The position numbers and the translations under genes were made by a program. The notes under the pieces are model-generated. The model worked only from the letters and a program-made list of their open reading frames with translations, was not told the origin of the DNA and did not search any database. From a virus: a DNA stretch of 64,000 nt. The stretch is from the IMG/VR virus record IMGVR_UViG_3300044984_003188. One strand, 5' to 3'. Position 1 is the stretch's first letter. Each line of letters begins with the position of its first letter. Positions 3,880-51,079 of this stretch are shown piece after piece.

Positions 3880-4194
3880 TCACTGAATTCCAAGCGCATT
3901 ATTGTTTTTCCTCCATATGATCCGTGCAGCCTGTTTTACAATACATACACCAGTCATTAATGACCAACCTTCTTGAGCTTCTATTAGGAGTTGGTCACAA
4001 ATTAGAGGCTTGAGATTATACACTAGCTTATCCCATTTACTAAGTTCAATATCCTTGAAGGTTTCATCCTTAGATAGGATAATATCATTTCCAAGCTTAG
4101 AGTCAACATAAGAAAGCACTTCTGGTGTTACAAATTGACTATAGTACTCATCAAATGTGCACCGAGTGTAAAGATAATCACGCCTAATATACAT
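3880..4194 (-). CDS. hypothetical protein
   Basis: Likely start MYIRRDYL; the longer track ORF reads the upstream repeat off-frame. Confidence 0.65.
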   Translation of the reverse strand: MYIRRDYLYTRCTFDEYYSQFVTPEVLSYVDSKLGNDIILSKDETFKDIELSKWDKLVYNLKPLICDQLLIEAQEGWSLMTGVCIVKQAARIIWRKNNNALGIQ

Positions 4195-4211
4195 TTTATT
4201 ATCCGTTTTAA

Positions 4212-4397
4212 TTATAAGTTTTGATCCAAGATTTGATCCCAGACTTGATCCAAGACTTGAATCCATACTTGATCCCCGACTTGATCCCCGACTTGATCCA
4301 TGACTTGATCCATGACTTGAACCTCGACTTGATCCATGACTTGAACCCTGACTTGAACCCTGACTTGAACCCTGACTTGACCCAAGACTTGCTTCAT
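4212..4397 (-). CDS. QVxD tetrapeptide-repeat microprotein
   Basis: MKQVLGQVRVQVRVQ...DQVWDQILDQNL; 12-bp repeat; TAATG-coupled to upstream ORF. Confidence 0.75.
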   Translation of the reverse strand: MKQVLGQVRVQVRVQVRVQVMDQVEVQVMDQVMDQVGDQVGDQVWIQVLDQVWDQILDQNL

Positions 4398-4603
4398 TAA
4401 ATTGGCTCCAGTTCCCAACGTTGGCTGATGACTTGCTCATGTGTAATCCAGCGCATATCAGCTTTAGGATCATCCTTAGGAACAATAAGAAGTTTAGATG
4501 TGTCTAAGAAATGGGATTGCACAATCCATTCCTCACCAAAGCGCTTAATTGCACCACGTTCTGTGTTTCGAGTAGGTTTCCATTTAACAAATTTAGTCGA
4601 CAT
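4397..4603 (-). CDS. hypothetical protein
   Basis: 68-aa ORF in a coupled operon. Confidence 0.7.
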   Translation of the reverse strand: MSTKFVKWKPTRNTERGAIKRFGEEWIVQSHFLDTSKLLIVPKDDPKADMRWITHEQVISQRWELEPI

Positions 4604-5036
4604 TTTTACTACCTACAGGTTCAGTAATTTCAAACGTATACCATCCACTACCATCTTTCTTAGGCTTAGGCATGGAAGGATCAGTGTAACCATATTTGGT
4701 CATAAGCATCTTAGCAAAGCGATGACAATTTGGGATATCAAAACTGGAGAATGAAACACGACGAATGCCAGATGGCACAACCACTGGCTTCTTGCGCTCG
4801 GTCAGCATTTCAGGAAGAAGAAACCTGGAGTTATCAAAGAATGCACGCTTGGCTGGAATAGCTGGCGCTACATTAGATGTTAGGGTTGCAGCATATTCAT
4901 CAGCCTTTTGAACTTCCTTGGGATGCCGTTTGGCATGAGCCTTCTGACGAGCAATTACTTCCTTCTCCACTGGAGCTGGGTTAACCGCATCGATCTTAGA
5001 CTTGTTCTTAGAACCCTTAGGGCGACCACGAGGCAT
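4593..5036 (-). CDS. hypothetical protein with N-terminal AT-hook-like motif
   Basis: MPRGRPKGSKNK; GGAG RBS; own sigma70 promoter. Confidence 0.75.
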   Translation of the reverse strand: MPRGRPKGSKNKSKIDAVNPAPVEKEVIARQKAHAKRHPKEVQKADEYAATLTSNVAPAIPAKRAFFDNSRFLLPEMLTERKKPVVVPSGIRRVSFSSFDIPNCHRFAKMLMTKYGYTDPSMPKPKKDGSGWYTFEITEPVGSKNVD

Positions 5037-5061
5037 GTTGCTCTCCTAGATTACGTACCGA

Positions 5062-5217
5062 TTATACCATACTCACAAAAAATGTCAAGGGTTCTTTCGG
5101 CGCCTTGACATTTTTTCGTGAATAGAGCTTTTTGCTCTTAACAACCCTTTTATGAAACTTCGGGTCAATAAGAACCCTAGCCATAGGGTTACGTTTTATC
5201 TGCTTTCGCTTTGACAT
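5062..5217 (-). CDS. ArfA-like small basic protein
   Basis: NPMARVLIDPKFHKRVVKSKKLYSRK resembles ArfA [21 protein letters not shown]...YMRK. Confidence 0.55.
   Translation of the reverse strand: MSKRKQIKRNPMARVLIDPKFHKRVVKSKKLYSRKNVKAPKEPLTFFVSMV
5077..5116 (-). terminator. 14-bp stem hairpin/terminator inside the ArfA-like ORF, overlapping the next -35 box
   Basis: AAAAAATGTCAAGG-N12-CCTTGACATTTTTT. Confidence 0.75.
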
Positions 5218-5650
5218 TCTTCCAGTGCTCCATGAATCGAACGTAAAGACCAAGTTCACGCCCGAATGCTTCGATTTCCCACGGTAGATCCCAATAGTCC
5301 ATGGTATTGGTATTTACCATCACGCCACGAAACTTAGTCACGTATGGCGTGCGCTCATATTGCCTTGACTCACCGGTGGCGTACTGCTTCACATGGACCA
5401 TCTCATGAGCCAGTGCAATCAGCATATCCTTAACCGAACGCTTCGGGTTGATATGCAAATTGAACTCACGAGGGCGAGCAATTTCGTCCGAATCACATTG
5501 ACCATCCACACCCTCACCCTTGAAAAAGACGTCGACAGTCAAGTTCTTGACAAGCTGACGGTTCATGAGCATTGATGCATAGAACCGAACCGCTTCGGTT
5601 ACCATGTCGGACGAGAGCTTGGGTGGGCACTTACAGACTGATACTTGCAT
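5189..5650 (-). CDS. HExxH zinc metallopeptidase-like protein
   Basis: LAHEMVHVKQY...YWDLPWEIEA. Confidence 0.85.
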   Translation of the reverse strand: MQVSVCKCPPKLSSDMVTEAVRFYASMLMNRQLVKNLTVDVFFKGEGVDGQCDSDEIARPREFNLHINPKRSVKDMLIALAHEMVHVKQYATGESRQYERTPYVTKFRGVMVNTNTMDYWDLPWEIEAFGRELGLYVRFMEHWKNVKAKADKT

Positions 5651-5676
5651 GATACCCTCAATTGATCATAGTCTGG

Positions 5677-5706
5677 TTATAATCCAACCTGGGATTAAAG
5701 TCAACC
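5677..5706 (-). promoter_or_regulatory. early promoter (repeated cassette promoter)
   Basis: GGTTGACTTTAATCCCAGGTTGGATTATAA, near-identical at 5978-6007 (-) and 6873-6903 (+). Confidence 0.85.
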
Positions 5707-5949
5707 AGAAATTTCTTCCACGTCTGCGTGCACGCTGGTGTAGCCCTCCACATAATATCCGTCGGTGCTGCGCTCCATGTCAAAGGCCTTCTGAATGGCA
5801 TCCAGCACATTGCGGGCCTGCACCGGAGGGTATACAGCCTTGTTGACGTGCGGACCCGGATCATCCGTAGGGTATACAAAGGTCAGCGTAACCCTGTAGG
5901 TCTTCATCGGGGCAGGCTTACGGAAAAAACCAAACAGCTTGCAGATCAT
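5701..5949 (-). CDS. hypothetical early protein
   Basis: GAGG RBS then MICKLFG; stop codon lies in the next -35 box. Confidence 0.7.
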   Translation of the reverse strand: MICKLFGFFRKPAPMKTYRVTLTFVYPTDDPGPHVNKAVYPPVQARNVLDAIQKAFDMERSTDGYYVEGYTSVHADVEEISG

Positions 5950-5977
5950 CTTTAGACCCTCATTCATCATAGTCTGG

Positions 5978-6007
5978 TTATAATCCAATCTGGGATTAAA
6001 GTCAACC
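5978..6007 (-). promoter_or_regulatory. early promoter (repeated cassette promoter)
   Basis: GGTTGACTTTAATCCCAGATTGGATTATAA followed by CCAGACTATGATGAATGAGG leader. Confidence 0.85.
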
Positions 6008-6181
6008 ATGGTCAGGTAAAAGGTCGAGCTTTTCACGGCGCCGGAGAGCTTCAGCCACGAGCTGTCCGATGCTGCCGCGGCAGTATGCTTCCCGCTGCAT
6101 CACACGGTCAAAAAGCACCCTTTCGTTATCAGTGAGTGTGCCGCGGATCGTATCAAAGATCAGCTTATCGTTGTCGGTCAT
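6002..6181 (-). CDS. hypothetical early protein (59 aa, not in ORF track)
   Basis: MTDNDKLIFDTIRG...LLPDHG*; GAGG RBS; promoter at 6208-6238. Confidence 0.7.
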   Translation of the reverse strand: MTDNDKLIFDTIRGTLTDNERVLFDRVMQREAYCRGSIGQLVAEALRRREKLDLLPDHG

Positions 6182-6239
6182 CTTTAACCCTCATTCATCA
6201 TAGTCCCTTTATACCATCACATGCTTTAAAAGTCAACCC

Positions 6240-6603
6240 CAACAAAATCAATAGGTTAGCCATGAATTGGTTCTAACCCATTGAAAAGATTACCAAAATT
6301 TTTTTCGGTGATCCGCAACTTTTTTGGGCATCAACCCTTACTTGGAACCAAAACCTAATCTTTTCAATGGGTTAGGCTTTCCAAGATGTCTAATCTTTTC
6401 AATGGGTTAGGTTCTAAAAACGTCCCTACCCGACCTAAGCCACTGTGGATGGGTTATCATACCGCTAGGATCACTTAGCACGATCTCAGACGTATTCTTA
6501 GCTAAGTGATTGATATGATTAGGCTTAAAAAAAATATAAGAAATATGTAGATTTTTTTGGTAATCTTTTCAATCACTTAGCCCTAACCCATTGATATCCT
6601 TAC
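6240..6603. repeat. non-coding locus 1: seven IHF-like boxes around a 49-bp core
   Basis: Boxes near 6246, 6274, 6362, 6397, 6503, 6567, 6584; core 6435-6483; homologous to 47866-48247. Confidence 0.85.
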
Positions 6604-6634
6604 GGTTGACTTTTATCCATCCTGGTGGTATAAA
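6604..6634 (+). promoter_or_regulatory. early promoter
   Basis: GGTTGACTTTTATCCATCCTGGTGGTATAAA plus GAGACTATGATGAATGAGG leader. Confidence 0.85.
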
Positions 6635-6661
6635 GAGACTATGATGAATGAGGAACGGAAG

Positions 6662-6868
6662 ATGCTCAAAGCCACCCCACTGATGATCCGATTCGTTAAG
6701 ATGCTCCCGGCTGATCAGCGGATCACTGCGGTCGTTCGAGCGGAGCGGGTCTATGCTGCTGCCCTGACTCAGCTGACTCGCTTTGATGACTTCGGGCACG
6801 AGCAGAATGTTGCCATGGCACTCGAGGCGGCTGAAGCCGAACTGGCTTATATGGCAAACCAGCCCTAA
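6662..6868 (+). CDS. hypothetical early protein
   Basis: GAGG RBS; GC-rich codon use; alternative in-frame start at 6641. Confidence 0.7.
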   Translation: MLKATPLMIRFVKMLPADQRITAVVRAERVYAAALTQLTRFDDFGHEQNVAMALEAAEAELAYMANQP

Positions 6869-6949
6869 TCAGGGGTTGACTTTAATCCCAGGTTGGATTA
6901 TAAAATGACTATGAACAAGGTGACCGATATGGAAAAGAAGGATAATGAT

Positions 6950-7162
6950 ATGAATAGACTGATTCCCGTTGCCCGCCACAATCCCACTGTATTTGTGCGG
7001 AGTGATCTTGTAGCCACCATGAATATTGTGATTCATAGCACACATGTAGAGTTGCAAATCCTTCTTACCCTTGGCACAACGGTGTGTGAGCGGTTTGACT
7101 CACTCACAGAGGCTTCTGATGCTGCGGTGCGCATCTGTAACCTATGCAATCAGGGCAAGTGA
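6950..7162 (+). CDS. hypothetical early protein
   Basis: Downstream of promoter 6873-6903; AAGGA RBS; start uncertain. Confidence 0.6.
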   Translation: MNRLIPVARHNPTVFVRSDLVATMNIVIHSTHVELQILLTLGTTVCERFDSLTEASDAAVRICNLCNQGK

Positions 7163-45999: not shown

Positions 46000-46296
46000 T
46001 TAATTCCTAATTTGATAATAAACTTCAAGTGAAATTTGATTCAAAAAAAATGGTGAGACATTATTTCGAATCTCAACCCTAAGACGTCTTGAAGAGTGAT
46101 TTTCAATTTCATCCCATACTTCATCATATATTTGATCATAGACTTGATTCCTGACTTGATGCCAGATTTGATTCCAGGCTTGATCACTGATTTGATTGTC
46201 GACTTGATTCCTGACTTGATGCCAGATTTGATTCCAGGCTTGATCACTGATTTGATCTTCGACTTGGCGCAAGACTTGATCCGAGACTCTATTCAT
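46000..46296 (-). CDS. QVxD tetrapeptide-repeat microprotein
   Basis: DQVLRQVEDQISDQAWNQIWHQVRNQV; internal 60-bp duplication 46141-46260. Confidence 0.75.
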   Translation of the reverse strand: MNRVSDQVLRQVEDQISDQAWNQIWHQVRNQVDNQISDQAWNQIWHQVRNQVYDQIYDEVWDEIENHSSRRLRVEIRNNVSPFFLNQISLEVYYQIRN

Positions 46297-46521
46297 TTAA
46301 ATTATCAATGGCGTTTGTCATGATGATGCCGACATCATTCTCGTTCATTTATTTCACCCTTTATAAGATGTGCAATCTGATTTTGGAATATAGACCAAGT
46401 TATATCATATGTTTTATCGGCGACATCACGCATACATCGTTGACTTACATTCATATATATTTTATTGCCAGCACTCATTAAAAGTTTAGTTTTAAGATTA
46501 TATTTAGCTCCAACCATAGGT

Positions 46522-47397
46522 TTAGTTTTTGCAGCAAGTGACAATGGCACGCTTCATCCAATTGGCATCATTCTTACGGCGAAGGATACCAATCTTAAGA
46601 GCCACACGGAGAGAGAGCTCACGGAGTCGGGTTGCATTCTTTTCGATGAAGTTGAGCACATCGGCCTGAGCAGTAGCATCCAGGCCGATATTCTGCAGCA
46701 GACCACCACGTACCACCTGACGGATACGGATGAGGTAGTCACGCTGATTCTTCATTGCCAGGTCGATATAATGAGCACGAGACACAAGAGCCGAAAGATG
46801 CGGCGCAAGCCGGGACCCACGGTCAATCATGGCGTCAAAATCGTAGTTGGTAATAAAGATCACGGTACCATCGAACTGAAAGCTCTTGGGCATGCGCTCG
46901 GCCGACTCATCGTCAATCAGCGTACCCTCGGTCATATACGAGATGATGCGCTTGTCGGTAGTGTCCAGAGCGGCCTTGAGCAGACCGATGGCAGTCTCGT
47001 CAAGGAACACATCGTCGGCATCGTCAAACACGAGCACCGAACCAGCAGTACGATGCTGATACAGCAGCTTGTAAAGTGCCGGAGCCTTGACGTAGCCCTT
47101 CACGATACGATGGGAGGTGGCATTGGGATCCCATGCCTCGAGCGCCTTCTCGACGGTGAACGACTTGCCGAGACCGGCAGGACCGGACACGATCAGCGCA
47201 CGAACGTCACCGTCGATGGCTGCATTTGCCATGTCGGAGAGGATTTCAAAACGGTCGTTGAGCTTCTGCTCAATTTCCTCGTCAGTCTCAACGATAACGG
47301 GCTCAGAGGGCTGAACCACGTTCATGATCTTGTCCATCTTGTCCGTCTTAGCGGTGCGGGTCTTACGGTAGCCATTTTTCGGAACGCCACGGGGCAT
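46522..47397 (-). CDS. AAA+/P-loop ATPase, early, GC-rich
   Basis: GPAGLGKS, VLVFDDAD, LKAALD, IFITN, ALVSR. Confidence 0.9.
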   Translation of the reverse strand: MPRGVPKNGYRKTRTAKTDKMDKIMNVVQPSEPVIVETDEEIEQKLNDRFEILSDMANAAIDGDVRALIVSGPAGLGKSFTVEKALEAWDPNATSHRIVKGYVKAPALYKLLYQHRTAGSVLVFDDADDVFLDETAIGLLKAALDTTDKRIISYMTEGTLIDDESAERMPKSFQFDGTVIFITNYDFDAMIDRGSRLAPHLSALVSRAHYIDLAMKNQRDYLIRIRQVVRGGLLQNIGLDATAQADVLNFIEKNATRLRELSLRVALKIGILRRKNDANWMKRAIVTCCKN

Positions 47398-47448
47398 GTC
47401 AGTGTCCTTTTGTGTATAAGCAAACCTTATCCCAGATTGGGATTAAAG

Positions 47449-47571
47449 TCAACCGTTATTTTCGATGGTGGAGAGGTATTCTTCGTATTCAGCAAGGTCG
47501 GCAGCGGTCGGCTCGTAAGCTTCCTCACAGGAAACCTCGAGGTCAAAATCGTCGGGATAGGATATGTTCAT
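47449..47571 (-). CDS. small acidic hypothetical protein
   Basis: MNISYPDDFDLEV; AAGG RBS; stop in next -35. Confidence 0.6.
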   Translation of the reverse strand: MNISYPDDFDLEVSCEEAYEPTAADLAEYEEYLSTIENNG

Positions 47572-47578
47572 TAACCTT

Positions 47579-47809
47579 TCAGTCATTCCAGATTGTGAGG
47601 GTGATGCAACCCATGCTCTGCTGATACAGCATAGCGCCGAGGTCGCCACCAGGTGTCATCTTAGCGCTTATACGGAGAAAGGGCTGCTTGTTACCCAGAG
47701 TGGTCCTGATGCTGTTGGGCCATTCACCCGGGCGCATGCGCAGCTCAGAGGCTTCAGCGCTGAAGCAGTGCACCTTGTGTTCGGTCACGTCGGAGGCGGT
47801 AATGATCAT
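47579..47809 (-). CDS. hypothetical early protein
   Basis: AEASEL motif; GAGG RBS; promoter 47835-47863. Confidence 0.7.
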   Translation of the reverse strand: MIITASDVTEHKVHCFSAEASELRMRPGEWPNSIRTTLGNKQPFLRISAKMTPGGDLGAMLYQQSMGCITLTIWND

Positions 47810-47865
47810 GTCTACCTCATTCATCATAGTCTCTTTATACCACCACCCAAGATAAAAGTCAATCC

Positions 47866-48247
47866 TAAGGATATCAATGGGTTAGCCAGGTAGACGCCTT
47901 AACCTATTGAAAAGATTATAAAAACTTTTTTCGGTGCACCAAAACTTTTTTCGATCGACCATCGGTCATGGACCTGCTCACCGCACTCAAGATGGTAAAA
48001 CCTAATCTTTTCAATAGGTTAGCAGTTTTATAAAAGTCAATGATATCAATGGGTTAGGTGCTCACGACGGTTCTCGGCAGTCTAAGCCACTGTGGATGGG
48101 TTATCATACCGCTAGGACCACCTAGCACGACTAGAGCACGGTTGCCATCCTAACCCATTGATATCATTAGGACTCAAACTTTTTTCAAAAAAATGCAATT
48201 TTTTTCCTCAATCATATCAATGACTTAAGCCTAACCCATTGACAAAG
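47866..48247. repeat. non-coding locus 2: seven IHF-like boxes around a 49-bp core
   Basis: Boxes near 47872, 47900, 48009, 48044, 48151, 48215, 48232; core 48082-48130. Confidence 0.85.
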
Positions 48248-48307
48248 CAGGGGTTTACTTTTATCTCATATGGGGTTATAAAGAGACTATGATGAAGGAA
48301 ACGAACA

Positions 48308-48552
48308 TGACCATCACGGTCTATGACCTCAGAAACAAATCTTTCTCACATGGTAACCTTGACTATAAAGTGTATGTGGTTATGGCCGATGGTAAAGAAC
48401 CCAAAGTTTATAGCAGTTACTTTAGAATCAACGCCATTCGTGTGCTTAAAGATCTTGGTCATGATGTAACTGAGATTGATATCTATACCAAGCGTGATGC
48501 TAAAAAAGCTCTCGGCAAAGATCTTTTTGACAAAATTTACAACCCTCGCTAA
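48308..48552 (+). CDS. hypothetical early protein
   Basis: Promoter 48253-48282; track ORF 48289-48552; start approximate. Confidence 0.6.
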
Positions 48553-48625
48553 ATTACCTATTGACTTTAATCTCAGATTAAGATATAAGTTAAGTCATAC
48601 CAACAACACCAACGAAAGACCTACA

Positions 48626-48850
48626 ATGACCGAATTTTCCGGCGACAAGGCCAAGACCAACGTGACCATGGCATCCGATGGGCGCTACCACACCTCCCGT
48701 GACAAGTACCGCAAGGGCGATCTGCGGAAGACCAATCTTGAGGAGTACGGCTCCACATCGTTCGGCACCGATGGGTACTACGACGGTGCTCCCGGCCGCA
48801 AGAAGCATAAGAAGTGGAGCCGGACGGAAAAGCCGTCCTATCTCGACTGA
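48626..48850 (+). CDS. hypothetical early protein
   Basis: Promoter TTGACTTTAATCTCAGATTAAGATATAAG at 48561. Confidence 0.65.
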   Translation: MTEFSGDKAKTNVTMASDGRYHTSRDKYRKGDLRKTNLEEYGSTSFGTDGYYDGAPGRKKHKKWSRTEKPSYLD

Positions 48851-48911
48851 GTGGGTTGACTTTAATTCCAGATTAAGATATAAGTTAAGTTATAACAAGG
48901 AGACTACCAAC

Positions 48912-49085
48912 ATGGATATCTCGACCGTTCTGTCCCGTATGTACGCCTTCGCCAAGACCACCAAGGACGATGTGGCCTCTAATGAGGTTGCCCGGGCCGC
49001 CGACCGTCTGGCGCACCAAGGGCCGTTTGAGGCTCAGCTGACCTCAGAGGAAGTCTCGGTGATTTCCCGCTTTGTCGGTGCATAA
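48912..49085 (+). CDS. hypothetical early protein
   Basis: Promoter at 48857; AGGAG RBS. Confidence 0.7.
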   Translation: MDISTVLSRMYAFAKTTKDDVASNEVARAADRLAHQGPFEAQLTSEEVSVISRFVGA

Positions 49086-49150
49086 GCCTATTGACTTTTT
49101 TCCATAACCTGGTATAATGGTTAGTGACCAAATAATGATGGTATAAGGTT

Positions 49151-49324
49151 ATGGAAAAAGTTAAGAATCAAGTCTTGGGTTCAGTCATGGGTCAAGTGGA
49201 TAAAAAAGTTTATAATCAAGCCTTGAATCAAGTCCAGGATCAAATCTTTGATCAAGTCTATAATCAAGTCTATAATCAAGTCTGGAATGAAATCTGTTAT
49301 CAAGTCTTGATGGAGATAGAATGA
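49151..49324 (+). CDS. QVxD tetrapeptide-repeat microprotein (57 aa, not in track)
   Basis: MEKVKNQVLGSVMGQVDKKVYNQALNQVQDQIFDQVYNQVYNQVWNEI; own promoter at 49091. Confidence 0.75.
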   Translation: MEKVKNQVLGSVMGQVDKKVYNQALNQVQDQIFDQVYNQVYNQVWNEICYQVLMEIE

Positions 49325-49497
49325 TGTATCTGGTTAGTTTTACCAACTTTGGTTATACTAAGGACTTTTCCAATAAGGAACAAGCTCTGACTTATATGGA
49401 GAGGGCATGCCTTGAGGCACTGCTGATGACCGAGAAGGGTGAAGTCCTTGCTGGATTCTCTCCTATCACTGGCTTCAAAACCGAAAAAAGTGGTTGA
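49321..49497 (+). CDS. hypothetical protein (58 aa, not in track)
   Basis: MMYLVSFTNFGY...FSPITG; ATGA overlap; stop in next -35. Confidence 0.65.
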   Translation: MMYLVSFTNFGYTKDFSNKEQALTYMERACLEALLMTEKGEVLAGFSPITGFKTEKSG

Positions 49498-49553
49498 CTT
49501 TAAACCTAGTTAAGATATAATCCTACTATCAAAACAAACACGGAGACTTAAAA

Positions 49554-50507
49554 ATGGCTCACAACATTGAAATGGTTGACGGCAAGGCTCAGATGGCATA
49601 TGTGGGTGAAACCCCGTGGCATGGTCTGGGCCGTGAGGTTCCTGCTGATCTTACTCCAGATCAGATGCTTGAGGCTGCTGGTATCAACTGGGAAGTTGAG
49701 AAGATCAAGGCCTATGCTAAGGTCGGTGGTAAGAACATCGACGTGGGTCGTTCGGCTCTTGTCCGTAAGAGTGACAACAAGATTCTAGACATCGTGTCGA
49801 ACGACTGGAATCCGGTGCAGAACGCTGAAGCGTTTGAATTCTTCAACGACTTCATCGCCGAGGGTGACATGGAAATGCACACCGCTGGCTCTCTGGCTGA
49901 TGGTCAGATTGTCTGGGCTCTGGCTAAGGTCAAGGACGGCTTTGACCTGTTCGGTGGTGATGAGGTCGAATCGTATCTGCACTTCACCAACTTCCACAAG
50001 TATGGCTTCTCCACTGACGTTCGGTTCACTCCGATTCGTGTGGTCTGCAATAACACCCTAACGCTTTCTCTTAACACCAAGGTCGAGCGCTTTGTCAAGA
50101 TTAGTCATCGCCGTGAGTTCAACGGTGACAACGTAAAGCTCATGCTTGGTATTGCTCAAGAGAAGCTTGCTAAGTATAAGGAAATGGCTGCTTTCCTCGG
50201 CACCAAGCGCTACACCAACGAGAATATGGTCGACTACTTCAAGCGTGTGTTCCCTGTTGCTGGTGGTCCGGATGCTAAGAAGGAACTTAGCAAGAATGCT
50301 AAGGTTGCTCTGTCCGTGGTCGATACTCAGCCCGGTGCAGACTTTGCTCGTGGATCCTTCTGGCAGCTCTTCAATACGGTGACCTATACTGCTGATCATC
50401 TGATGGGTCGCACTCAAGACTCTCGTCTAACCTCTGCTTGGTACGGCAATGGTCGTAACATGAAGACCCGGGCGCTAGAGACTGCCATCGAAATGGCAAA
50501 CGCCTAA
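49554..50507 (+). CDS. DUF932 family protein
   Basis: MAHNIE...ETPWHGLG, PVQN, TAGSL, TPIRVVCNNTL. Confidence 0.9.
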   Translation: MAHNIEMVDGKAQMAYVGETPWHGLGREVPADLTPDQMLEAAGINWEVEKIKAYAKVGGKNIDVGRSALVRKSDNKILDIVSNDWNPVQNAEAFEFFNDFIAEGDMEMHTAGSLADGQIVWALAKVKDGFDLFGGDEVESYLHFTNFHKYGFSTDVRFTPIRVVCNNTLTLSLNTKVERFVKISHRREFNGDNVKLMLGIAQEKLAKYKEMAAFLGTKRYTNENMVDYFKRVFPVAGGPDAKKELSKNAKVALSVVDTQPGADFARGSFWQLFNTVTYTADHLMGRTQDSRLTSAWYGNGRNMKTRALETAIEMANA

Positions 50508-50665
50508 AAAAACGGTTGACAAAACTTACTACCTGATATATAAGTAACTTATCAAAACATAGAAAAGGACTAAAATAATATGAGCGAATTTCATTCTGTG
50601 CTGTTGGCATCACTTCTACTATTTGTGTTGTGTGGTGTTGTGGCATTGGTGAACTAATAGACAGC

Positions 50666-50705
50666 GTCATCTCTATACAACTGAAGTCATCTCTATACAA
50701 CTGAA
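50666..50705 (+). repeat. 20-bp perfect tandem repeat
   Basis: GTCATCTCTATACAACTGAA x2. Confidence 0.9.
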
Positions 50706-50725
50706 AAACACAAGGAAAAACAACT

Positions 50726-51079
50726 ATGAAAACTTTTACTCGTATGGCTGCCCAGGGCGATTTCATCATTCTGCGGATTAATGATATTCCCGCAAATGTC
50801 GAGCGCCTCGCACCAAATGACCGTAACCACATTGTGGTTGCACATTCCGAAACCGGTCATGACCACGTGATGGTTGCCGACCGTGTAACCGCCTACAAGA
50901 CTACTGGTACCAAGGACGTTGATCTTTATGAGATGTTCCTCTCCGTTGAGGCTCCTACAGAGATCAATCATCTTCGTACCTTTGATACCCACGAGACTCT
51001 TCTGGTTCCTCCTGGTAACTATACTGTTCGCCGCCAGCGTGAATATGTTGCCGAGGGTTTCCGTCGGGCTCAGGACTAA
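50726..51079 (+). CDS. His-rich partner protein typically upstream of DUF6745 genes
   Basis: AQGD...HSETGHDH...H....H...PPGNYTVRRQREY. Confidence 0.75.
   Translation: MKTFTRMAAQGDFIILRINDIPANVERLAPNDRNHIVVAHSETGHDHVMVADRVTAYKTTGTKDVDLYEMFLSVEAPTEINHLRTFDTHETLLVPPGNYTVRRQREYVAEGFRRAQD

Follow-up and report, generated by a model that had tools for sequence, protein, structure and literature searches.

We found two homologous, gene-free loci of ~400 bp, here called hubs, in a 64,000-nucleotide stretch of viral DNA (the window). Each holds seven boxes that resemble IHF sites, arranged in a fixed order around a shared core and enclosed by two outward-facing promoters. Our best reading, to which we give a probability of about 45%, is that each hub is folded by an IHF-type protein and controls the divergent early promoters beside it. 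The source of the window is a T4-like phage from lake water that has not been cultured. Among its genes are those for gp43 DNA polymerase, gp41, gp32, gp59, UvsX, gp33 and baseplate proteins, and the metagenomes whose runs contain window sequence were sampled from lake water. Its polymerase shares only ~48% identity with that of the nearest sequenced phages, the cyanomyoviruses, and a search of genome contigs for a clue to the host returned no match.

As listed in Table 1, the first hub contains seven matches to the pattern TCAATNNNTTAG in the order > < > > core < > <, exactly as the initial annotation had described, and the second hub likewise contains seven. The pattern was matched 14 times in the window against 1.65 times expected from shuffled sequence, and 12 of these 14 matches fell within the two loci. 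Three boxes of copy 1 match the IHF consensus WATCAANNNNTTR without error, at 6246 (+), 6503 (-) and 6584 (-), again in agreement with the initial annotation. We found four further exact matches in copy 2 (47872, 48044, 48151 (-) and 48215), and 7 of the 15 WATCAANNNNTTR matches of the window thereby lie within the ~0.75 kb that the two loci make up. The remaining seven boxes mostly read TTTCAA, which is one mismatch to WATCAANNNNTTR. We know of no precedent for seven IHF sites within 360 bp. The 49-nucleotide segment of the core was correctly reported to recur with 2 mismatches at a distance of 41,647 bp in direct orientation, and the A/T tracts between the boxes of copy 1 and the divergent promoters at both of its ends were found where they had been placed. 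The homology between the two copies is more extensive, spanning the entire intergenic region of ~480 bp with promoters and leaders included, and it is distributed as a mosaic: identity amounted to 96% in the core, 89% in the boxes, 76% in the promoters, 68% in the A/T tracts and 45% in the remainder. Because conservation is so unevenly distributed, the two loci appear to be old paralogues in which only particular elements have been maintained.

Table 1. Positions of hub elements in the window, followed by the layout of the boxes relative to inner box 2.
Feature	Position	Strand	Details
Copy 1 leftward hub promoter	6208-6236	-	-35 TTGACT 6236-6231, 17-bp spacer, TG-extended -10 TATAAA 6213-6208, then leader ACTATGATGAATGAGG
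Copy 1 outer-left convergent box pair	6248-6284	+ and -	TCAATAGGTTAG 6248-6259 (+), TCAATGGGTTAG 6273-6284 (-); 25 bp start to start
Copy 1 left A/T tracts	6295-6325		A4T7 6295-6305, T6 6320-6325; same place in relatives; A/T-rich at -22 to -11 from boxes
Copy 1 inner boxes 1 and 2	6364-6410	+	Both TCAATGGGTTAG; starts 6364 and 6399, 35 bp apart
Copy 1 core	6411-6501		Between inner boxes 2 and 3; contains 49-mer 6435-6483
Copy 1 inner box 3	6502-6513	-	TCAATCACTTAG; 103 bp from inner box 2
Copy 1 right A/T tracts	6527-6558		A8 6527-6534, T7 6552-6558; a 30-bp window here ranks within the lowest 0.25% of the 64 kb for duplex stability
Copy 1 outer-right convergent box pair	6569-6594	+ and -	6569-6580 (+), 6583-6594 (-); starts 14 bp apart; promoter-proximal box stops 8-9 bp short of -35
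Copy 1 rightward hub promoter	6606-6634	+	TTGACT 6606-6611, 17-bp spacer, TATAAA 6629-6634, then shared leader
Copy 2 leftward hub promoter	47834-47862	-	-35 47862-47857, -10 47839-47834
Copy 2 outer-left box pair	47874-47910	+ and -	47874-47885 (+), 47899-47910 (-)
Copy 2 inner boxes 1 and 2	48011-48057	+	Starts 48011 and 48046, 35 bp apart
Copy 2 core	48058-48149		49-mer 48082-48130, 47/49 positions as in copy 1
Copy 2 inner box 3	48150-48161	-	104 bp from inner box 2
Copy 2 outer-right box pair	48217-48242	+ and -	TCAATGACTTAA 48217-48228 (+), TCAATGGGTTAG 48231-48242 (-)
Copy 2 rightward hub promoter	48254-48282	+	Variant -35 TTTACT 48254-48259, 17-bp spacer, TATAAA 48277-48282; read from the sequence and aligned with copy 1
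Layout: outer-left first box	~-161 from inner box 2	+	
Layout: outer-left second box	~-136 from inner box 2	-	
Layout: inner box 1	~-35 from inner box 2	+	
Layout: inner box 2	0 (reference)	+	
Layout: inner box 3	~+103/104 from inner box 2	-	
Layout: outer-right first box	~+170 from inner box 2	+	
Layout: outer-right second box	~+184 from inner box 2	-	

The initial annotation had suggested looking among relatives for further copies, and the element is indeed not confined to two. Queries with the polymerase, the neighbouring AAA+ protein and two box patterns recovered 23 distinct hub versions from IMG/VR and JGI lake metagenomes. Up to three were present on one contig: G001, of 60.9 kb, carries three hubs spaced ~16-17 kb apart, all of them bracketed by outward promoters, and two other contigs carry two hubs each. 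Sigma70-like, outward promoter-like sites were found on both sides in 16 of the 19 hubs with full flanks. The architecture is conserved in relatives: boxes, core and promoters are kept, and the spacings between them are either fixed or stepped. In a search for cultured relatives, region 6000-6900 around hub 1 gave no blastn match among 50,697 phage records, and the exact core sequence had no match in IMG/VR or in the fetched loci.

Where the spacing of the boxes varies, it follows the helical repeat of DNA. A distance of 35 bp separated inner boxes 1 and 2 in 22 of 22 hubs, the two boxes of each outer pair, left or right, stood 14 or 25 bp apart in all hubs, and the stretch between the outer-left pair and inner box 1 measured 90-91, 101-103 or 111-112 bp in 16 of 17. 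Spacings that vary among hubs do so by steps of ~10.5 bp, although Rayleigh p-values for this phasing overstate the independence of the observations, because the hubs are related to one another. Since spacer lengths are quantised where the spacer sequence itself is not conserved, the rotational setting of the boxes appears to be under selection. Judged from sequence, helically phased boxes of this kind indicate one higher-order, stereospecific protein-DNA complex, of which they would be the signature. The proposal that the loci are nucleoprotein sites folded by a host protein thus gained in its structural part, from the conservation in relatives, the quantised spacers and the selective retention of boxes, core and promoters; the folding protein would presumably be supplied by the host.

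The boxes themselves have several properties expected of IHF sites. In extended form a box spans ~33 bp and consists of an A/T tract, SS, TAATC, WWW, TCAAT, GGG and TTAG. Among 140 distinct boxes picked by a position-neutral rule, we counted 5.9 mismatches per position at TCAA/TTA and 17.8, or ~3 times as many, at the positions that IHF leaves unspecified together with G11. Upstream of the boxes lies an A/T-rich stretch at a distance of 11-22 bp: the A/T fraction of the 140 boxes was 0.61-0.87 over -22 to -11, with peaks of 0.77-0.87 at several positions, and ~8 bp separate the tract from WWTCAA. An example is the unit at 6273-6305 on the minus strand, which reads A7T4-GGTAATCT-TTTCAA. The H' site of phage lambda reportedly has the layout A6-N8-TATCAA, in which the A tract lies at the same distance 5' of the box as the A/T tract of the hub boxes. 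In more distant relatives AATCAA and TTAG are retained, with TGAC, GGAC, CGAC or TAAC in the middle, and in the promoter-proximal boxes of relatives W was found at 92% and A at 85%. The description of the boxes as IHF-like is upheld by the consensus match and by an A/T tract at the H' distance, which make IHF a plausible binder. The concentration of variation at positions where IHF is indifferent fits it in part, as TGGG still prevails at the NNNN positions in 27 of 39 promoter-proximal boxes. The description is strained by T4, GGG, the final G (G11) and the upstream TAATC, which are conserved beyond what IHF requires.

If the boxes were instead operators of a dedicated phage or host regulator, exerting the same promoter control, then the IHF match would be coincidental. 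We regard this as unlikely, but it would account for the surplus conservation of GGG, T4, G11 and TAATC just described. Moreover, the extended box reads as a weak palindrome of 23 bp (CCTAAYC-N9-GRTTAGG), a possible sign of a dedicated dimeric protein, and words of the type TTAG/CTAAG are repeated within the core and next to the -35 element. A phage that supplies its own binder has a precedent in SPO1, whose TF1 is an HU/IHF-family bending protein that binds and represses early promoters and prefers hmU DNA. Like the hub phage, SPO1 is lytic, and TF1 has several preferred sites overlapping early promoters; TF1 is however phage-encoded, whereas no HU/IHF-family gene was found among the top 25 of the 46 Pfam families matched in the window or in the contigs of five relatives, all of which are fragments. 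Against a dedicated regulator we also count the strong asymmetry of the box, which draws most of its information from the right arm and from TCAAT at the centre, in contrast to the usual dimer operator, and the fact that no gene is consistently linked to the hubs.

Both hubs of the window are flanked by outward TTGACT-17-(TG)TATAAA promoters with the common leader ACTATGATGAATGAGG. These were catalogued by regular expression, since a consensus promoter scanner misses them on account of the final A of their -10 element. The resulting window catalogue comprises 32 promoter-like cassettes and holds three of the four hub promoters, the rightward promoter of copy 2 having been left out because of its variant -35 TTTACT; boxes accompany hub promoters only, and do so at a fixed offset. 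Because the -10 element ends in A (TATAAA), the strength of the hub promoters is something we infer. In a wider set of 301 distinct promoter-like sites, a complete IHF consensus preceded the -35 element (TTGAC) at an interval of 8-9 bp in 32, and the promoter-proximal box directs its WATCAA end to the promoter. In a sister lineage (L023, L024, L028 and L033) the hubs are short and lack the core, consisting of a pair of boxes, phased T tracts and a second pair, and in distant relatives (L035 and L040) a single box lies upstream of single unidirectional promoters. Since core-less hubs and units of a single box and a single promoter both occur in related lineages, the boxes belong to the promoters. 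Of the four functions that had been offered for these loci, namely origin, early-transcription hub, DNA entry or packaging signal and recombination site, the early-transcription hub is thus favoured, by the fixed distance between box and -35 element and by the existence of these reduced forms.

Two further features of the hub promoters were observed. All four have a TG-extended -10 element ending in A, TGGTATAAA (6629-6660, 48277-48310, 6213-6180 and 47839-47805). In the shared leader, a transcript starting 7 nt past the -10 element would coincide with the first ATG of ATGATGAATGAGG.

We propose that each locus would act as a non-transcribed control hub between two outward early promoters of the host sigma70 type. 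The 12-bp boxes, or ~33 bp in extended form, would be sites for an IHF-type DNA-bending protein, for which host IHF would be the most economical candidate. Seven or more such sites on fixed helical faces would fold ~360 bp into a compact complex that couples both promoters. An IHF-sized footprint of 35 bp, centred just 5' of WATCAA at the proximal box, would cover the -35 hexamer, which with its T run would sit exactly where H' has its A tract. If the footprint covers the -35 element in this way, then occupancy of the proximal box should repress, damp or time the promoter. The distal boxes and A/T tracts could return upstream DNA to RNA polymerase, as at lambda pL, or could redistribute the supercoiling generated by divergent transcription. 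Both the identity of the binder and the choice between activation and repression are predicted here from sequence features.

Precedents exist for most of the ingredients. In phage Mu an IHF site lies between the divergent phage promoters Pe and Pc. At lambda pL, IHF acts together with a distant UP element (Giladi 1998, pmid 9791187), and at ilvPG it acts within an A/T-rich upstream activating sequence (Parekh, Sheridan and Hatfield 1996, pmid 8702758). In all three systems, as in the hubs, a strong promoter of host type is preceded by A/T-rich DNA and a site matching the IHF consensus. The outcome there is governed by bending and by helical face, to which the phasing of the hub sites would correspond. 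The hubs differ in having seven phased sites rather than one or two, convergent pairs, a proximal site that abuts the -35 element, an added quasi-palindromic core and several repeats per genome, and in belonging to a lytic T4-type phage. Dispersed repeats that unite an IHF consensus with inverted repeats also recall the RIP/RIB elements of E. coli, which are repetitive extragenic palindromes with a central IHF site; these differ in being bacterial, in lying at the 3' ends of operons and in having a single IHF site and no promoters. By analogy, the hub would be classed as IHF-type architectural control of phage promoters, a known principle, in a new form. For a T4-type phage, the seven phased sites, the paired layout, the added core and the multi-copy state are unusual, and in the literature searched on IHF in T4-like phages or at early promoters of lytic phages we found no such hub described, nor any role of IHF reported for the T4-type group.

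Early-gene control is poorly understood in T4-type phages that lack the MotA/AsiA circuit. If the proposed promoter control is correct, a repeated, phased IHF-type array between each pair of divergent early promoters would be a new link, in a lytic phage, between the first wave of transcription and a host nucleoid protein. The hub could then also tie infection to host physiology, since the level of IHF tracks the growth phase.

The position and copy number of the hubs also bear on replication. IHF is a known origin cofactor, at oriC, pSC101 and R6K. On the gene strand map of the window, hubs 1 and 2 are the sole divergent strand switches. Hubs occur in multiple copies, should themselves remain untranscribed and contain A/T tracts as well as a quasi-palindromic core. 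These features would fit a set of homologous replication origins of this T4-like lineage, folded by an IHF-like protein and opened through negative supercoiling from the outward promoters, with the core as entry site, or alternatively a dual role as promoter and origin. T4 itself has at least five origins, of which oriE, oriF and oriG lie at points of transcription divergence, and oriE contains 12-nt repeats and depends on an early promoter (PMC3016281). The assertion in the initial annotation that T4-type origins are not known to look like this therefore calls for qualification in view of the repeats and early promoter of oriE and the divergence points of all three. The resemblance is that T4 origins, like the hubs, occur several to a genome and at divergence points (PMC3016281). 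The differences are that the hubs are homologous to one another, whereas the T4 origins have no common motif, that their boxes form inverted pairs where the oriE repeats are evenly spaced and direct, and that they lack the MotA-type promoter and downstream unwinding element of oriF and oriG.

We nonetheless consider an origin improbable, alone or in the dual role. The layout of oriF and oriG, in which a MotA-box promoter is followed by an A+T-rich unwinding element, was not seen in the hubs, whose promoters are of early type and outward; since they fire away from the hub, an R-loop of the T4 type would form outside it. Nor did we see the layout of an iteron origin, with even direct repeats, an unwinding element and an initiator gene, as the boxes are mostly inverted pairs and are not evenly spaced direct iterons. 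The distance between box and -35 element is moreover fixed, and in related lineages boxes accompany promoters even where no core is present. In terms of duplex stability, hub 1 contains sequence in the lowest 0.25-0.9% of the window, whereas hub 2 reaches only the least stable 2.5-9%. Without an exceptional unwinding element in copy 2 and without an initiator beside the hub, the suggestion of an origin gained no positive support. GC skew, which had been put forward as a check, tracks gene direction only.

No hub-linked initiator gene was found, and the genes flanking the hubs vary. The first genes on either side fell into 28 clusters, 15 of them singletons, and no constant partner gene emerged across the hubs from this comparison. 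A candidate initiator that we considered was the conserved AAA+ ATPase at 46522-47397 (-), of 291 aa and assigned to phrog_1250, which is the first gene of the leftward block at hub 2. Relatives of it occur in 74 IMG/VR loci, and the PDB contained no sequence match. Its structural model (pLDDT 84.5) shows a generic likeness to NorQ/MoxR, RuvB and NSF at a TM score of ~0.5; with a predicted fold that is generic and bears no initiator-specific likeness, we rejected this candidate. Even so, the hub is, at ~400 bp, a synthesisable and testable candidate for the unmapped origins of T4-like phages of hosts other than coli, and if it were an origin, the choice of origin in T4-type phages would become readable from sequence.

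The diversity of flanking genes can also be viewed in terms of recombination. The hubs might be recombination or mobile regulatory modules, either attP-like or comparable with the PeSLs that shuffle early genes, with the boxes serving recombination. PeSLs occupy the hyperplastic regions of T4-type phages as unidirectional units of ~50-70 bp composed of a terminator stem-loop and a promoter, and their repeats mediate shuffling in these phages (PMC2839356, PMC4122927). Both PeSLs and hubs are repeated regulatory DNA among small, variable early genes. Besides the highly diverse neighbours, this explanation could draw on the GC-rich surroundings of the hubs (44-47% compared with ~35%), on a central segment of ~25 bp that is flipped between otherwise near-identical hubs, and on the attP-like placement of a core between inverted IHF sites. 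We hold it to be very unlikely. A PeSL combines promoter and terminator stem-loop, whereas no terminator-like site was found in either hub, and the hubs, at ~400 bp, are bidirectional and carry phased boxes for predicted protein binding. No integrase or recombinase was found among the best 25 Pfam families of the 99 window ORFs, and the direct repeats flank essential genes, including the DNA polymerase, so that active site-specific recombination would be lethal. The phasing relative to promoters would moreover be left unexplained. With no integrase in those families and with essential genes that would be deleted, the suggestion of a packaging or recombination site likewise found no positive support. 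Homologous exchange at the hubs may well occur as a by-product. As a separate observation, the single-gene promoter cassettes that adjoin the hubs resemble PeSLs.

The core is the best conserved part between the two copies, and its function lies outside what the promoter-control hub explains. It occupies an interval of 83-92 bp between inner boxes 2 and 3. Its left arm is conserved: CTAAG, invariant in 22 of 23 hubs, starts at a distance of 24 nt from box 2, or 25 in two hubs, and ends 29-30 nt after that box. The centre reads GATGGGT and resembles the middle of a box, and on the right side CTAGG/CTTAG words recur at 10-bp steps. One possibility is that the core closes the fold as a cluster of weak boxes; another is that it forms the working part of an origin.

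As a whole, the core forms an imperfect palindrome with weak dyad symmetry. DNA-fold z-scores ranged from -8.0 in L096, which has an 18-bp perfect inverted repeat around the core centre, to -0.8, and those of the two window cores were -2.9 and -3.7. An obligatory cruciform was rejected, because dyad symmetry decays in several lineages and is not a conserved requirement. We also rejected an RNA gene: Rfam gave no match at gathering level, and RNAalifold on 23 cores yielded -4.8 kcal/mol with a covariation term of 0.05. At E<=1 the only Rfam matches were spurious ones to plant miRNA hairpins, caused by the inverted boxes, and there was no tRNA in the hubs. Co-evolution of the core with a genome-specific factor was not supported, since the two window cores match each other but cores differ within G001 and within G003.

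Comparison of the window core at 48082-48130 with L093:1833-1946, L096:4650-4765 and L009:2136-2251 revealed that the central ~25 bp (GGATGGGTTATCATACCGC) are inverted in these three hubs relative to the window while the arms are unflipped; both arms of L093 are near-identical to those of copy 2. Because the centre is inverted while the arms keep their orientation, the core centre appears to work in either orientation. In L097 the centre looks inverted by eye, but alignment scores do not favour the reverse orientation. The inversion resembles the small flips that occur at hairpin loops. By eye, L025 (in the reverse complement of the 1100 bp upstream of 4001) appears to contain two modules of the form box > core < box in tandem.

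Several further observations were made on transcripts, copy number and surroundings. The sole RNA-library contig over 6232-6385 derives from a relative and may be DNA, and is therefore uninformative on transcription. In run X9, a lake metagenome, contig depths summed to 27-41 across the hub (6337-6670) and to 9-11 in the flanks, a 3-4x difference, and assemblies broke within the hub. The contig joints and the raised depth reflect paralogous hubs. Both the depth and the breaks fit several near-identical hub copies per genome or population. The GC content around both hubs (4000-7000 and 46000-51000) was 44-47%, against ~35% elsewhere, where most values lay at 30-38%. The hub-linked blocks of small early genes are thus compositionally distinct islands, possibly as a result of horizontal exchange. 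Small ORFs with a four-residue repeat of the type Q-V/I-x-D/N were found on both sides of hub 2, at 46000-46296 (-) and 49151-49324 (+).
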